Positions 7,893-12,688 of a stretch of 43,939 nucleotides of DNA are shown here, one piece after another (positions within the stretch are counted from its first letter, which is position 1; each line of letters starts with the position of its first letter). The stretch lies in the NCBI GenBank assembly GCA_011065175.1, contig JAAKFE010000003.1:1-43939 (forward strand), in the 5' to 3' direction. Under the pieces are notes generated by a model. That model was not told the origin of the DNA. It made no database searches and saw only the letters and a list, made by a program, of their open reading frames with translations. This DNA is from Candidatus Anoxychlamydiales bacterium (GTDB taxonomy: Bacteria > Chlamydiota > Chlamydiia > Chlamydiales > SM23-39). The position numbers were made by a program, and so were the translations under genes.

Positions 7893-9296
7893 TTGAAAAA
7901 AACAAAAGTTTTAAATTTATTTACTCTTCTTTGGGTGACAGCAGCTTTTAATGTCTCCATTCGAAACTTAGGTATTTTTGCTACAACAAGCATGCATATG
8001 ATCTTTTTTGCTGTCGTTACTTTAGCTGTTTTTTATCTGCCTATTGCTTTAGTTACAGCAGAAATGGCTACGACATTTCCAAAAATGGGAGGTATCGCTG
8101 TTTGGGTAAAAGAAGCTTTTGGAAAAAAAATTGGGCTATTAGCAATTTGGCTTCAATGGACTTATATGAATATAGCAATGATCGCTATGCTATATTTTAT
8201 TTCAGCATCACTATCATTTGTATTTGCTCCTCATCTAGTTCATAATAAGGCTTATCTCATCTCAATGAATATTATTTTGATTTGGCTTTTTACTTTTTTT
8301 AATTTAAGAGGTCTTAAAATATCTACAAAGATCTCTCAAACATTTTTTATTTTAGGGATTTTGATTCCAGCTATTTTAATTATAGGATTGGGAGTTATAT
8401 ATGTAGTGCAAGCAAAACCAATTCAAATAGATACGACTTTTAGTGTTAAAAATTACTTGCCAGATTTTCATCTTACAACTTTAGTTATTTTAATTGGTTT
8501 TATGAGAGCTTTTGGAGGAATAGAAGGCTCTGCTGTCCATGCAAATAGCGTTGAAAATCCTAAAAAAAATTATCCTTTAGCTATTTTTTTTGCGGTAACA
8601 CTCGGATTTTTAATAAATATTTTAGGATCTATGTCACTTGCTTTTGTAATACCTCAAAAAGATATCTCTTTAATCGGGGGAGTAATGCATGCTTTTAGTA
8701 TTTATTTTACAAAATATAATCTTAAATTTTTGATTCCTCTTTTAGGTCTTTTAGTTGCAATTGGTCAGATGGGTGGATTTTCAACATGGCTAGCTGGTCC
8801 TGTTAAAGGACTTTTAGAAACTGCAAAAGCAGGGGAGCTTCCTGTTTTTTTTCAAAAAGTGAATAAAAATAACATGCCTTCTAACTTAATGATAATTCAA
8901 GCAATTGTTATCTCTATTTCTAGCACAACCTTTCTTTTAGTTAGCTCAAGTATTAATATGTCTTTTTGGATTTCTGTTGCTCTTTCCATGATGATATATG
9001 TTTCTATGTATTTTTTGATGATTCTTTCTTGTTTGTCTCTTAGATATAAAAAACCAGATATTCAAAGAGTTTTTAAAATACCTTTTAAAAATTTTGGACT
9101 ATGGTTAGTTTCTATTTTAGGAATGATGACTATGGTTTTTGCTTTTGTTATGGCTTTAATTCCGCCTAATCAATTAGAAAAAGAAAACTCTTTAAAATAT
9201 TTCTTAATTTTAATAATTTCAGTAATTATTGTTTATATAATTCCTTTTTTAATCCATCGATTAAAAAAAGAATCTTGGTTTGTTAAAAGCAAATAA
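7893..9296 (+). CDS. APC-family amino acid permease/antiporter, GadC-like (APC1)
   Basis: About 12 TM helices; AEMATTFPKMGGIAVWVKEAFG, GIE, NPKKNYP, LRYKKPDIQRVFKIP. Confidence 0.88.
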   Translation: MKKTKVLNLFTLLWVTAAFNVSIRNLGIFATTSMHMIFFAVVTLAVFYLPIALVTAEMATTFPKMGGIAVWVKEAFGKKIGLLAIWLQWTYMNIAMIAMLYFISASLSFVFAPHLVHNKAYLISMNIILIWLFTFFNLRGLKISTKISQTFFILGILIPAILIIGLGVIYVVQAKPIQIDTTFSVKNYLPDFHLTTLVILIGFMRAFGGIEGSAVHANSVENPKKNYPLAIFFAVTLGFLINILGSMSLAFVIPQKDISLIGGVMHAFSIYFTKYNLKFLIPLLGLLVAIGQMGGFSTWLAGPVKGLLETAKAGELPVFFQKVNKNNMPSNLMIIQAIVISISSTTFLLVSSSINMSFWISVALSMMIYVSMYFLMILSCLSLRYKKPDIQRVFKIPFKNFGLWLVSILGMMTMVFAFVMALIPPNQLEKENSLKYFLILIISVIIVYIIPFLIHRLKKESWFVKSK

Positions 9297-9297
9297 A
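9196..9297 (+). repeat. Direct repeat R1, copy a (last ~100 bp of APC1)
   Basis: Near-identical to 13730-13831 (aatatttcttaattttaataatttca...gttaaaagcaaataaa). Confidence 0.93.
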
Positions 9298-9455
9298 TAC
9301 AGAAATGGCGTATTAAAATTATTTTTCTATAAATAATCTTTCATGAGAAACTCTTCTTGTTATTTTTCAGGAGGTTCTGTTCATGGATTAAGGGGCATTA
9401 AAATATTTACTAAGAAAATATTTTGCGGGAGCTACTGTTTTTCTATCATTAAGCT

Positions 9456-9485
9456 TTGACAAATATCTAGAAATACAAATATAAT
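9456..9485 (+). promoter_or_regulatory. Consensus sigma70/66 promoter of the leader-SSS operon
   Basis: TTGACA (9456-9461), N18, TATAAT (9480-9485). Confidence 0.8.
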
Positions 9486-9529
9486 AATTGTAGTTTTCAG
9501 AGACAACAGGTCTCACAAAGGAGAAAAAC

Positions 9530-9661
9530 ATGAAAATACAATCAAAGGCAGACAGTTCAGAGTCTTTTGATTTAATAAAGGACTCTACTAATTTATTTAT
9601 TATTTTTTCATTTACTTCTATTTTCTCTCATTCTCATCATCATTTAATCCATCTTCATTAA
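9530..9661 (+). CDS. Putative His-rich leader peptide, 43 aa
   Basis: AAGGAG RBS at 9518-9523; MKIQSKADSSESFDLIKDSTNLFIIFSFTSIFSHSHHHLIHLH*, with six His among the last ten codons. Confidence 0.7.
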   Translation: MKIQSKADSSESFDLIKDSTNLFIIFSFTSIFSHSHHHLIHLH

Positions 9662-9695
9662 ATTTTAATTTTTAACAAATTAGTTTAAAAAACTG

Positions 9696-9767
9696 GATGT
9701 TAAAGAAGTAGCATATTTGCATATGTAGATTTTTAGAATCTATATCACTTCTTAAATATCTATTTTC
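9696..9767 (+). promoter_or_regulatory. Structured leader RNA (attenuator-like)
   Basis: Outer stem gatgttaaagaagt/acttcttaaatatc encloses catat-ttgc-atatg and tagatt-tttag-aatcta hairpins, followed by tattttct. Confidence 0.5.
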
Positions 9768-9814
9768 TAAGAGTAAAAAATTTAAATTAACAATAAAAAA
9801 TACAGGATTTTTAT

Positions 9815-11179
9815 ATGAATATTCCATTTTTTTTAGCAATTACAGCTCTATTGGGGAGCATATATATTTGGATAGGAAAGCGTTCTTCCAAAAACGTTCA
9901 GACAAATGATGATTATTTTTTAATGGGTAGAAAGCTTGGTTTTTTTCAACTGAGCTTGACCCTTTTAGCTACTCAGCTTGGAGGAGGATCTCTGTTAGGT
10001 GCAGCTCAAGAAGCTTATCAAAAAGGCTGGATTGTCCTCTTTTATCCTCTAGGAGCATGTCTTGGCCTTTTTGCTCTTGGCATGGGTTTTGGAGGGAAAT
10101 TACGAAAATTAAATATTTCTACAATAGCAGAAATTTTTGAAAAAATTTATAGATCTCGTCGTCAAAGGTTGATAGCTTCCGGATTATCAATTCTTGCATT
10201 GTTTTTTATTTTGGTAGCTCAAGGGATTGCTGCTAAAAATTTTTTTATAGCTATGAATTTCCAATCCCCAATTATATTTATTCTTTTCTGGGCCATTCTC
10301 ATAGCATACACTGTCATGGGGGGATTAAAAGCCGTTGTAAATACTGATATATTGCAGGCTTTGTTTATTCTTGTCACATTAGGTTTTGCATTTTTTTCTA
10401 TCAATTTTTCTAACATAGCAATATCTAAACATCAAGTATCCCCAAATTTGGGAATTTCAACAGTCCCATGGATATCTTGGTTTTTCATGCCGTTTCTTTT
10501 CATGCTCATTGAACAGGACATGGGACAAAGATGTTTTGCAGCAAAGAAGCCAAAAATAATTTCCATCTCAGCGGTAGTTGCCGGAATTCTTCTTTTAGTT
10601 AGTTCTAGCGTTGCTATTTATTTTGGTGTACTCGCAAAAAAATTAGGTATTCAAGCTTTGGGTAATGCAAGTATTCTAATTGAATCAGTCAAAGCTCTAA
10701 CTAATCCGGTTGTTACAACTTTATTTATGGGGGCTATCTTTATGGCTGTAATATCAACAGCAGATTCTATTCTTTGTTCGATAGGTTCAAATCTATCATA
10801 TGATTTTCTAGTTTCTAAAAAAATCTCAGCAAAAAAACAAGTTTGGATATCCAGAATGCTAACCTTAATAACAGGTCTTGGATCTCTTGGTCTTGTCTAT
10901 GTTTTCGATAATGTAGTTACTATGTTGATGTTTGCTTATGAGCTTTCTGTTTGCATCCTATTTGTTCCAATTACTCTAGCTATGCTCTCAAAAAATCCAT
11001 CACGCCTTGGCGCTTATTTCTCAATGGCTTTGGGGGCGATAGGTTTTGGCGTTTTCCGATTTATCTCTTTGCCAATTCCTAAAGAAGTGATGACATTATC
11101 TCTAAGTTTTATTGGTTATATGATAGGGAGAAAAATCGATTTGCAAAGAACTTATGTTAAACAAATTCAGGAGGAATAA
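9815..11179 (+). CDS. Sodium:solute symporter (SSS) family permease
   Basis: DYFLMGR, GGLKAVVNTDILQ, QRCFAAK and AVISTADS motifs; about 13 TM helices. Confidence 0.9.
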   Translation: MNIPFFLAITALLGSIYIWIGKRSSKNVQTNDDYFLMGRKLGFFQLSLTLLATQLGGGSLLGAAQEAYQKGWIVLFYPLGACLGLFALGMGFGGKLRKLNISTIAEIFEKIYRSRRQRLIASGLSILALFFILVAQGIAAKNFFIAMNFQSPIIFILFWAILIAYTVMGGLKAVVNTDILQALFILVTLGFAFFSINFSNIAISKHQVSPNLGISTVPWISWFFMPFLFMLIEQDMGQRCFAAKKPKIISISAVVAGILLLVSSSVAIYFGVLAKKLGIQALGNASILIESVKALTNPVVTTLFMGAIFMAVISTADSILCSIGSNLSYDFLVSKKISAKKQVWISRMLTLITGLGSLGLVYVFDNVVTMLMFAYELSVCILFVPITLAMLSKNPSRLGAYFSMALGAIGFGVFRFISLPIPKEVMTLSLSFIGYMIGRKIDLQRTYVKQIQEE

Positions 11180-11181
11180 AT

Positions 11182-11901
11182 ATGCAAAATAGAAGAAAAA
11201 AAACAATTGGAATCATTGGTGGAGCTGGACCCATGGCAGGAGTCTTACTTATGCAAAAAATCATCACAATCTGTCAAAAAAAATATAAATGTATCAATGA
11301 TTTTGATTTTCCAAAAATAATTTTGTTGAGTTACCCGTTTGCTGAAATGCTTAAACCTCTTTCTTTTCAGCAAGATGAAAAAAAAGTGACTAAGCAACTA
11401 AAAGAAGCTCTAAAGTTTCTAAAGAATAGCGGTATGGATTACATCACAATTGCTTGCAATACTCTTCATGGCTTTATAAATGATACTTATCGAAATAAAC
11501 TGATCGGTTTAATTGCTGAAACAAAATCATTTTTATTGGAACAAAATCTATCTAAAGTTTTGGTTCTTTGTACTAAAACCTCAGGACTTAAAGGTCTTTT
11601 TTACAATTTTGCAAACACTAAGCTTCTATCACCGAAAGAGCTCCAATGGATAGAAGAGTTAATAAAAAAAGTATTAAGTGGAACCTTTTCTTTGCAAGAT
11701 CGTAAAAGCCTCGAAAATTTTATCTTATCAAGTATTAAAAAAGATCCAAGTATCAATGGAATCTTACTTGGTTGTACAGAATTATCTGTCCTGATGGACA
11801 ATTTTTCTAGAAACAATCCAAAGATAAAAATCATAGATCCTCTTGAGATTGTTTCAAATAAACTTTGTAAATTAGTTTTTAACAAACAAAGAGGAGAATA
11901 A
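11182..11901 (+). CDS. PLP-independent Asp/Glu-family amino acid racemase (RacX/YgeA-like)
   Basis: IGIIGGAGPMAG, IACNTLH and LLGCTELS; both catalytic Cys are present. Confidence 0.9.
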   Translation: MQNRRKKTIGIIGGAGPMAGVLLMQKIITICQKKYKCINDFDFPKIILLSYPFAEMLKPLSFQQDEKKVTKQLKEALKFLKNSGMDYITIACNTLHGFINDTYRNKLIGLIAETKSFLLEQNLSKVLVLCTKTSGLKGLFYNFANTKLLSPKELQWIEELIKKVLSGTFSLQDRKSLENFILSSIKKDPSINGILLGCTELSVLMDNFSRNNPKIKIIDPLEIVSNKLCKLVFNKQRGE

Positions 11902-11903
11902 TT

Positions 11904-12035
11904 ATGAATAAAATATCTAGATTTACAAAAGAAAAAATCACGATCACATTTTTGCCTTTTGAGAGGAAAGAAGAGGGTAAAAAATTCATTATACAAGATG
12001 ATAATTTAGAATTATTAACGAGGTTAAAAATATGA
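11904..12035 (+). CDS. Small hypothetical protein, 43 aa, inside the operon
   Basis: GAGGAG RBS; MNKISRFTKEKITITFLPFERKEEGKKFIIQDDNLELLTRLKI*; fills the gap and overlaps the next gene as ATGA. Confidence 0.6.
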   Translation: MNKISRFTKEKITITFLPFERKEEGKKFIIQDDNLELLTRLKI

Positions 12036-12688
12036 TATACTATATAGATTTAAAAGAGATTATTATAAAAGATTGTAAAGAAGAACTTCTTGATGTTTCT
12101 AAATATTTGCCAGAAGTTTCTCTTAGATATCAGCAATCTGATATGTATGCTTACACAAAAAACATTTTTTTTCTTCGTAAAAGTTGCATTCAAATGTTAA
12201 AAAAAGCATCTGAGTTTCTTAAAGAGGCGCTACCAAATGCCAAACTTTTAGTTGTCTATGCTTATCGTCACCCTGAAGTTCAACAAAAGTATTTTCGTAA
12301 GCAGTATGATTTAATGAAACAAAAATATAATTTTTTGGAAAAAGATGAGTTATTTGAAAAAGTTCACCAATTGATAGCTGTTCCTGAAGTTGCGGGACAC
12401 CCAACTGGAGGATCAATCGATTTGACTATTCAAGTTGAGGGTAAAACCCTTGATATGGGTACGAAAATAGCAGATTTTAATGATAGCGAAAAAATAAAGC
12501 CTTTTTCGAAAGACATGACAGATGTTCAACAAAAAAATCGATTACTACTTAGAACTATTATGGTACAAGCTGGATTTGCTCCCTTTGACGGAGAATGGTG
12601 GCATTTTTCCTATGGAGACAAAGAATGGGCATGTTATTATAAAAAGCCATACGCTATTTATGAACAAGTTTTTTTGATCAAAAAATGA
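12032..12688 (+). CDS. M15D-family D-Ala-D-Ala dipeptidase (VanX/DdpX-like)
   Basis: AYRHPEVQ, HPTGGSIDLT, LDMGT and EWWHFSYG zinc-peptidase motifs. Confidence 0.88.
   Translation: MIYYIDLKEIIIKDCKEELLDVSKYLPEVSLRYQQSDMYAYTKNIFFLRKSCIQMLKKASEFLKEALPNAKLLVVYAYRHPEVQQKYFRKQYDLMKQKYNFLEKDELFEKVHQLIAVPEVAGHPTGGSIDLTIQVEGKTLDMGTKIADFNDSEKIKPFSKDMTDVQQKNRLLLRTIMVQAGFAPFDGEWWHFSYGDKEWACYYKKPYAIYEQVFLIKK

Follow-up and report, generated by a model that had tools for sequence, protein, structure and literature searches.

The stretch of DNA analysed here, called the window throughout (43,939 nt from a Candidatus Anoxychlamydiales bacterium, whose metagenome-assembled genome of 1.59 Mb is 92.9% complete and has a G+C content of 29%), contains a gene of an SSS-family transporter that is preceded by a small open reading frame (ORF) ending in a cluster of histidine codons. 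The subject of this report is that ORF, a candidate histidine leader, together with the RNA that separates it from the transporter gene. A preliminary description of the same DNA had noted a perfect promoter, a gagac/gtctc hairpin, an AAGGAG ribosome-binding site and a 43-codon ORF with the C-terminal sequence HSHHHLIHLH, and all of these elements were found in place (Table 1). The predicted peptide consists of a hydrophobic and serine-rich stretch followed by a His-rich tail: six of the last ten codons specify His, and all six are CAT (9629, 9635, 9638, 9641, 9650, and 9656).

Table 1. Features of the leader region and of the neighbouring genes, with their positions in the window
Feature	Position	Strand	Remarks
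GadC/TyrP-like amino-acid antiporter gene	7893–9296	+	Upstream of the leader
Sigma-70-type promoter TTGACA-N18-TATAAT	TTGACA 9456–9461, TATAAT 9480–9485	+	12 of 12 consensus positions
5′ hairpin gagac/gtctc, 5 bp	9500–9514	+	In the minimum free energy (MFE) fold; between the likely transcript start and the leader ribosome site
Shine–Dalgarno site AAGGAG of the leader ORF	9518–9523	+	
Leader ORF, 43 codons	9530–9661	+	ATG 9530, stop codon 9659–9661; product ends in HSHHHLIHLH
G-free pyrimidine-rich tract, 101 nt	9582–9682	+	3′ half of the leader ORF plus 21 nt past its stop codon
Hairpin HP1, candidate antiterminator	9669–9706	+	−8.5 kcal/mol; 5′ arm begins 8 nt past the leader stop codon
Branched stem-loop T, candidate intrinsic terminator	9694–9762	+	Centroid fold of 9662–9772
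U-rich tail UUUUCU	9763–9768	+	Directly after T; one U shorter in L032 and L031
SSS ribosome site AGGA and start codon	AGGA 9804–9807, start codon 9815–9817	+	
SSS-family transporter gene	9815–11179	+	PF00474, 102.1 bits
Asp/Glu-type amino-acid racemase gene	11182–11901	+	PF01177; starts 2 nt past the SSS stop codon
M15 D-Ala-D-Ala dipeptidase-like gene	12032–12688	+	PF01427; NCBIfam matches below cut-off

Among the 12,142 small ATG-initiated ORFs of 12–80 codons in the whole genome, five reached at least five His in ten residues or contained HHHH, and the leader ORF was the richest in His of these five. The other four, on contigs C35, C37, C54, and C107, were dismissed, as they lie inside or antisense to large ORFs. 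The perfect promoter pattern has its sole match in the window at this locus, where 0.09 matches were expected; it was present in 9 of 100 shuffled sequences.

When the SSS protein was compared with 41 related genomes, 22 of them had a match, and 15 of the 22 contained a clear ortholog (E ≤ 1e-50). Most of the upstream regions of these orthologs contained a small ORF ending in a run of His, while the remainder of the peptide was unrelated. A second sample was made up of 80 loci from a genome collection and 80 metagenome loci, found with an alignment of 12 protein sequences; almost all of the SSS ortholog loci come from metagenome-assembled genomes of Chlamydiota, and the few that carry other phylum labels were taken as labelled. 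An ORF was counted if it had at least four His in seven residues and lay no more than 500 nt upstream of the SSS start codon. The results showed that such an ORF was present at 47 of the 77 genome loci whose upstream sequence extends to at least 400 nt (47 of all 80), and at 41 of 78 metagenome loci, L117 and L174 having been left out because the 5′ end of the gene is missing. Parachlamydiaceae-type loci such as L084 and L106, which represent cultured relatives, are among those with a leader. With the same criterion, the control counts were 1 of 77 on the antisense strand and, on the two strands of the region 500–1060 nt upstream, 2 of 71 and 1 of 71. Within the gene the count was 2 of 80 twice, and on its downstream side the counts were 2 of 78 and 1 of 78.

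Six of 175 loci with uncertain gene starts were dropped before deduplication, and removal of identical proteins then gave 141 distinct SSS orthologs. Seventy-nine of these were preceded by a leader with at least four His in eight residues and seven more by one with three. The conservation of His codons in front of orthologous SSS genes, which the preliminary description had set as the test of its proposal, was thus clearly observed (79 of 141 versus 1–2 of 71–80 in the controls), with the reservation that this and the other family-level statistics treat related sequences as independent and therefore overstate significance. In an unrooted FastTree phylogeny of 140 proteins, the leader-bearing genes were scattered over all major branches, and the well-supported branches forced at least 14 changes between presence and absence of the leader. 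The simplest reading is that the leader is old and has been lost many times.

The 79 leaders have a median length of 37 codons (range 19–59) and contain four to eight His each, encoded by 391 CAT and 53 CAC codons. The last His lies 0–2 residues from the C-terminus in 67 leaders, and 73 start with ATG. A Shine–Dalgarno-like 4-mer at positions −17 to −5 was found in front of 47 of the 79 leaders, while the remaining ATGs of these upstream regions had one in 62 of 436 cases (14%). Leader stop codon and SSS start codon are separated by a median of 102 nt, ranging from 36 to 312 nt over the 79 loci.

The 3′ ends of the leaders have a distinct base composition. In the family, the last ~60 nt contain 29.6% C and 6.7% G; in the spacer, the 5′ part of the leader, and the far-upstream DNA, both bases are near 14–18%. 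The stretch with at most one G at the leader end is the longest of its kind on that strand of the ~4.4-kb locus in 47 of 79 loci, and the 24 nt on the 5′ side of the His run are 78% pyrimidine, as compared with 48% in the remaining ORF (79 leaders). The tract of the window (9582–9682) is its only G-free run of at least 80 nt, the longest C-free run being 70 nt, and a 95-nt sub-stretch of it (9587–9681) has 16 C; it is a candidate Rho loading site and/or anti-Shine–Dalgarno patch. Codon usage follows the same direction. In the last 16 codons of the leaders, Ser is encoded by UCY in 174 of 219 cases (79%) and by AGY in 12 of 219; the SSS genes have UCY in 1260 of 3079 cases (41%) and AGY in 803 of 3079, and the 5′ parts of the leaders have UCY in 87 of 178. 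Leu is encoded by CUY in 79 of 109 cases versus 1815 of 4741 in the SSS genes, and third-position pyrimidines are also raised for Pro, Ala, Thr, Val, and Ile. Since synonymous codons are skewed too, the pyrimidine bias is not merely a matter of amino-acid choice.

One clade, with peptides ending in H-G/E/K-H-x-A-H, has a hairpin of 4 bp with a 5-nt loop in the last codons, directly after the His run (loci L069, L008, L071, L073, L087, L094, L110, L149, L153, L157, L159, L161, L167, L172, L179, and L188). This hairpin is paired in 16 of 16 sequences, whereas controls slid along the alignment were 27–47% paired. One of its pairs is AU in 8, GC in 5, and GU in 3 sequences, and another is GC in 14 and AU in 2. 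The covariation score was 0.243, as compared with 0.137 ± 0.026 after shuffling, and 0 of 500 shuffles scored as high, a count that is not a probability since the sequences are related. A change of the Gly codon to Glu or Lys, which alters the amino acid, is matched by a synonymous change of the Ala codon; this is predicted by selection on the RNA and not by selection on the peptide, which argues against a functional peptide. In these comparisons, RNA-level selection on the 3′ end of the leader is visible. In L069 and L087, the bases of the clade hairpin are also complementary to the ribosome site of the transporter gene.

These data bear on the possibility that the ORF encodes a functional His-rich micropeptide, metal-binding or associated with the transporter, which possibly forms its own unit ended by the stem-loop at 9694–9762. 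A metal-binding micropeptide was the alternative named in the preliminary description, and several features of the locus would suit it: the strong promoter and good ribosome site, the hydrophobic and Ser-rich stretch with its His-rich tail, the stable stem-loop and U-rich tail after the ORF, and, in some leaders, a Cys beside the His run. However, only the C-terminal His run is conserved, the peptides being variable in length and unrelated in their N-terminal parts; many family members, as judged by eye, do not have a hydrophobic stretch long enough to span a membrane, and the leader peptide did not match any Pfam family. The ORF ends 80 nt or less (down to 36 nt) before the SSS start codon in 29 of 79 loci, a distance too short for a terminator and a promoter of their own. 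The pyrimidine-biased synonymous codons are not explained by selection on the peptide, and the Gly/Glu/Lys codon changes of the clade above covary with synonymous changes in such a way that the hairpin is preserved. It is therefore quite improbable that a micropeptide accounts for the ORF, the selection on synonymous codons and the covariation disfavouring it in particular.

The histidine physiology of the organism was approached through its gene content. Neither hisD (histidinol dehydrogenase) nor hisG was found in the 92.9%-complete genome, while the models of both genes matched in 14 of 14 control genomes. A marginal His_biosynth match of 19.9 bits, which covers 40 model positions and lies in a 350-aa frame, was not accepted as a his gene. 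Among the 41 relatives, hisD was found in one (G019:C4:530230–531413, minus strand; a genome of 6 contigs that is 63% complete), where it is in four pieces with an internal stop; this could be a decaying gene or the result of indel errors in the assembly. On this gene content, the organism and its relatives appear to need imported histidine.

The SSS protein matches PF00474 over the full length of the model (residues 34–407 on model positions 1–406 of 406). The match to TIGR00813, at 107 bits, is below the model's own cut-off of 184; the NCBIfam assignment is at the superfamily level only. The protein did not reach the thresholds of the characterised SSS subfamilies PanF (60 bits; cut-off 328), PutP (58; 515), and ActP (31; 1099). 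Among proteins of solved structure, choline and glucose transporters are nearest to it, with E values of 1e-16 or weaker, and the database names of its relatives are generic or automatic, for example sodium/glucose cotransporter or OpuE. In Pseudomonas, the SSS-family domain of CbrA takes up L-histidine, according to the available part of PMC7918813. The likeness between CbrA and the present protein lies in the SSS family, and the substrate is here deduced from the leader alone. As the organism appears unable to make histidine, the transporter most likely imports histidine or a histidine source.

A protein that is needed when His-tRNA is scarce should itself be poor in His. The SSS protein of the window contains one His in 454 residues (0.22%, as compared with a genome median of 1.67%), which is the seventh lowest His content of the 616 ORFs of at least 300 aa in the genome, and 36 of 78 leader-bearing SSS proteins are without any His. 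A coupling between the presence of a leader and the His count of the transporter was rejected, as 13 phylogenetically independent pairs gave a median p of 1; the family-wide poverty in His alone, and not the difference between proteins with and without leaders, is used here as evidence. Four ORFs of 309–554 codons have zero His (C110:30384, plus strand; C33:2725, minus; C2:465, plus; and C70:5819, minus); these may be further proteins made under His shortage, or chance ORFs.

We consider it likely, on the evidence of the sequence comparisons, that the ORF at 9530–9661 is not a protein gene of its own but a regulatory leader whose ribosome senses the charging of tRNA-His and raises the expression of the SSS transporter, a candidate histidine importer. 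The six His codons near the stop codon would make the translating ribosome a sensor of charged tRNA-His: with histidine scarce, the ribosome would stall on the His codons, and stalling would result in more expression of the SSS transporter, with the racemase gene next to it in this genus. The ribosome-mediated His sensing put forward in the preliminary description is supported by the conservation of the leader, by the codon selection, and by the failure to find hisD and hisG. The sensing step is well supported by the comparative evidence, while the output step and the substrate of the transporter are what we infer from it. No RNA sequencing run was listed as containing 9440–10400; the only runs that contain all of it are four DNA runs from one marine-sediment sample, which may be the source.

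Three observations weigh against the leader as a His sensor. First, an Rfam scan of 9000–10200 gave no match to the His leader family RF00514, even at E values up to 10; the six matches listed belong to unrelated families and score 15–18 bits. For lack of such a match, the leader is not a member of RF00514, and its proposed sensing step is nonetheless alike. Second, 51 of the 141 distinct SSS orthologs have no detectable His leader, and four more have too little upstream sequence. Third, SSS proteins with a leader have on average 1.0 His and those without a leader 2.0, yet there is no phylogenetic coupling. When 20 leaderless loci were scanned at the Rfam gathering threshold, the matches were confined to three tRNAs and one TPP riboswitch. 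The riboswitch (L068:2797–2894, minus strand, 64.8 bits) lies on the opposite strand, ~100–200 nt upstream of a leaderless SSS ortholog, and presumably serves a divergent gene.

The RNA between the leader and the SSS gene is predicted to be structured. The fold of 9490–9830 had a z of −2.94 relative to shuffled sequences. For 9662–9772, the MFE was −23.0 kcal/mol, as compared with −13.3 ± 2.6 kcal/mol in 200 shuffles, none of which was as stable (z −3.69). The multi-stem RNA that had been placed at 9696–9767 thus corresponds to a stable predicted branched fold, T, at 9694–9762. In the family, spacers of at least 70 nt likewise had more structure than shuffled versions of themselves: the median z was −1.87, and of the 56 spacers, 40 were below −1 and 24 below −2; as a general fact, any model of the output must account for structured spacers. 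These values also bear on the notion that the ORF is a chance ORF in AT-rich intergenic DNA followed by RNA structure without function. AU-rich spacers do yield many alternative pairings by chance, but with this degree of structure in the window and the family, with conservation far above the controls, and with a leader that is the richest of only five His-rich small ORFs among 12,142, the probability of that explanation is practically negligible.

Three routes by which a stalled ribosome could influence the SSS gene were considered, and different lineages probably use different ones. Route (a), intrinsic termination at T and its UUUUCU tail, is a tentative choice for the window, possible but short of probable as judged from predicted folds. 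A ribosome at the leader stop codon would cover the start of HP1, so that T would form and transcription would end, whereas a ribosome stalled earlier would allow HP1 to form first, leading to read-through. The 5′ arm of HP1 would lie under the terminating ribosome, and its 3′ arm has bases 9698–9706 in common with the 5′ arm of T, which is the geometry of a classical attenuator. With a ribosome masked on the His codon 9635–9637, HP1 is the MFE fold of the RNA up to 9712. T is kept in L032 and L031, where the alignment is 93% identical, and the sister paralog clade (L115, L116, and L122) is laid out in the same way, with at least seven consecutive U after the hairpin.

Against route (a), T always wins at equilibrium (−23.3 kcal/mol), and enforcing HP1 does not prevent an alternative hairpin from forming next to the U tail (−19.4 kcal/mol in total). 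At the family level, a generic 2:3/3:4 switch was rejected, as the mean number of bases switching partners (4.20) was no better than that of shuffles (3.88). A hairpin with a U tail was found in 28 of 79 loci, as compared with 8 of 79 on the antisense strand and 13–20 of 79 in shuffles, which is a modest enrichment, and a branched domain with a U tail in 10 of 56 versus 1–9 in shuffles. The terminator and antiterminator of the preliminary description thus stay candidates: the predicted stem-loop is stable and has a U-rich tail, but the overlapping HP1 does not exclude a terminator-like fold, and there is no consistent terminator across the 79 leader loci.

In route (b), the G-free, C-containing tract at 9582–9682 would be a Rho loading site covered by the stalled ribosome. 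We regard this route, which is put forward on the grounds of base composition only, as rather unlikely but worth consideration. With a ribosome held on the His codons, the loading site would be hidden, and after normal termination at the leader stop codon it would be bare; such a mechanism would explain why the patch is universal despite the variable spacers. Rho is encoded in the genome (Rho_RNA_bind, 116.6 bits). Part of the excess of C is forced by the His codons themselves, which counts against this route.

Rho also enters into a reading with the opposite sign, in which stalling would uncouple the ribosome from RNA polymerase and cause polarity, so that the operon would be on when histidine is plentiful and would serve export or catabolism. 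In C. trachomatis, Rho-dependent polarity takes place at codon-rich stretches under amino-acid starvation, as reported in the available text of PMC7755916, and T forms at any ribosome position in the equilibrium folds, both of which are in favour of that reading. On the other hand, hisD and hisG were not found, suggesting that import is needed; the SSS protein is extremely poor in His, as expected if it is made under His shortage; and the spacer on the 3′ side of the leader is not rich in C (C 14.0%, G 12.5%), in contrast to the patch that a stalled ribosome would cover. We thus give a switch that is on at plentiful histidine only a slight chance.

According to route (c), the pyrimidine and His-codon patch would pair with the ribosome site and start codon of the SSS gene, and a stalled ribosome would free them. 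The patch could mask the SSS start since CAU is complementary to AUG, and UCY and CUY are complementary to purine-rich ribosome sites. According to partition-function folds, the SSS ribosome site has its main upstream partner in the final 45 nt of the leader in 36 of 75 loci, as compared with 21 expected from equal tiles, and the mean pairing mass was 4.36 nt versus 1.36 nt. A 30-nt mask imitating a ribosome stalled on the His run raised the mean predicted accessibility of the site from 0.381 to 0.423 over the 79 loci, and the increase exceeded 0.15 in 13 of 79 loci versus 2 and 1 with control masks. In the paralog clade L115/L116/L122, the predicted value went up from 0.24–0.28 to about 0.5. 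In the window, the best upstream partner of the SSS ribosome site is formed by 9637–9640 with 9815–9818 and 9646–9650 with 9805–9809 (−7.7 kcal/mol).

Several results speak against route (c). The SSS site of the window is already 0.58 unpaired, and the mask raises this to only 0.61; its own duplex has a z of −0.7. In the family, the median duplex z was −0.40, and own pairs did not differ from permuted ones (Wilcoxon p 0.74). Pairing between the His region and the SSS ribosome site was therefore rejected as a general rule by the duplex test and kept for the 10 of 79 loci with z below −2. On these predictions, route (c) is an unlikely one. A related and rather doubtful idea is that of a terminator-free switch, in which the sensing codons, together with the pyrimidine patch in front of them, would also be the effector, as an anti-ribosome-site strand or as a Rho loading site, and would be selected at the RNA level.

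Leaders with His codons are textbook knowledge for the enterobacterial his operons. In the hisL-type mechanism, the leader ribosome senses the charging of tRNA-His, as described in the available part of PMC9413887. Like hisL, the element studied here is a short ORF that has a ribosome site of its own for translation and His codons near the stop codon, and that lies upstream of the regulated gene in the same orientation. It differs in several respects. The target is a transporter gene in an organism in which hisD and hisG were not found, whereas hisL serves a biosynthetic operon, and that organism belongs to the Chlamydiota. Other codons stand between the His codons (H-S-HHH-LI-H-L-H), unlike in the one unbroken run of hisL, and the His codons are preceded by a conserved pyrimidine-rich, G-poor patch. 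Lastly, no clean pair of mutually exclusive terminator and antiterminator was found here.

In the tnaC-tnaAB system, free tryptophan stalls the leader ribosome at the stop codon through the nascent peptide and blocks the loading of Rho. Route (b) is analogous in that a ribosome held at the end of the leader would cover a C-rich, G-poor loading site; the stall would here come from a lack of charged tRNA-His at sense codons, unlike that of tnaC, and the link to Rho is made by composition only. The analogy of route (c) is with the ermC type of control, where a stalled leader ribosome opens a helix that hides the ribosome site of the next gene; here, the data are in partial agreement with this for the family (36 of 75 versus 21; 13 of 79 versus 1–2) and in weak agreement for the window. 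Some amino-acid attenuators have a structure sequestering the ribosome-binding site in place of a terminator (PMC9413887, in the part available).

Outside of the Proteobacteria, His leaders have been predicted before hisS and hisZ in bacilli (PMC2965389) and before the his operon and the hisXYZ transporter genes in Peptostreptococcaceae and Erysipelotrichales, which are Firmicutes (PMC9413887), both as given in the parts of the papers that were available. The present leader is similar to these in being specific to a lineage outside the Proteobacteria and in having come to light through comparative genomics, some of the Firmicutes leaders also preceding histidine transport genes. As far as those parts go, the Firmicutes leaders were described together with hairpins for termination and antitermination, and the genes behind them are mostly those of biosynthesis or of ABC-type transporters; in the present case, the gene encodes an SSS-family symporter that is uncharacterised, and the structure of the output differs from lineage to lineage.

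Within the Chlamydiota, according to the available text of PMC7755916, TrpL-mediated attenuation is absent from C. trachomatis, whose trpL, as annotated, is atypical and awaits validation; this species senses starvation by means of a WWW motif in ytgCR together with Rho-dependent polarity. Judging from the same text, YtgCR resembles the present system in the phylum, in the use of stalling at runs of codons for a scarce amino acid as the signal, and in the involvement of chlamydial Rho in polarity. It differs in that WWW lies inside a long coding gene and acts in trans via a repressor, whereas the His leader is a dedicated and conserved element in cis. In the available part of PMC2965389, almost no attenuator predicted in Chlamydiae has an associated function. 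Our literature searches did not find a chlamydial His leader or a His-regulated SSS transporter, although the supplementary tables of PMC2965389 and PMC9413887 could list such loci.

Other features of the leader region were also compared. The perfect promoter pattern is present upstream of the leader in L032/L111, L037/L116, and L119 as well. One related assembly contains two paralogous SSS genes (L032 and L037), which are 88% and 65% identical to that of the window, each with its own His leader and perfect promoter. In the clade of the window, when read by eye, a hairpin of varying sequence is always situated between the promoter and the leader ribosome site; loci with a differing 5′ hairpin at the same place are L033, L034, L037, L038, L113, L115, L119, and L122. 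The 5′ hairpin may stabilise the 5′ end or be an additional means of control. According to the MFE fold, the ribosome site and start codon of the leader itself (9520–9536) pair with the U/C-rich segment 9605–9627, just 5′ of the His codons, and comparable complementarity of the leader ribosome site was seen by eye in L036, L119, and L033.

The racemase gene is probably co-transcribed with the SSS gene, and the best NCBIfam matches of its product are cysteate racemase (CuyB) and asp_race, both below the cut-off. Among the compared SSS loci, a racemase gene stands next to the SSS gene only within the same genus (L002), and the M15 dipeptidase-like gene was matched only at the window's own locus. 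The control of a transport/racemase operon, as it had been envisaged in the preliminary description, is thus conserved, as regards its target, for the SSS gene alone. A 43-codon ORF (11904–12035) lies between the racemase and M15 genes. With the racemase and M15 genes behind the transporter gene, it may be that D-amino acids or D-dipeptides are scavenged in sediment. Upstream of the leader and on the same strand, a gene of a family-5 solute-binding protein is found in addition to the antiporter gene.

As far as our literature searches show, this is the first comparatively supported cis-acting leader-peptide sensor in Chlamydiota. Chlamydiae rely on amino acids taken up from outside, the substrates are known for few of their importers, and their sensing of starvation is little understood; for a family of transporters that has been named automatically, the leader gives a testable substrate prediction, histidine. 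If the terminator-free reading is true, there would be an ancient, phylum-wide chlamydial sensing of an amino acid that the cell cannot make, and an orphan SSS subfamily would gain histidine as its substrate. The ~80 diverged leaders with their differing spacers constitute a natural series in which outputs based on terminators, on Rho, and on ribosome sites can be compared. Control of a transporter by a leader in an auxotroph would mean that leaders can report the demand for uptake, and not for biosynthesis alone.

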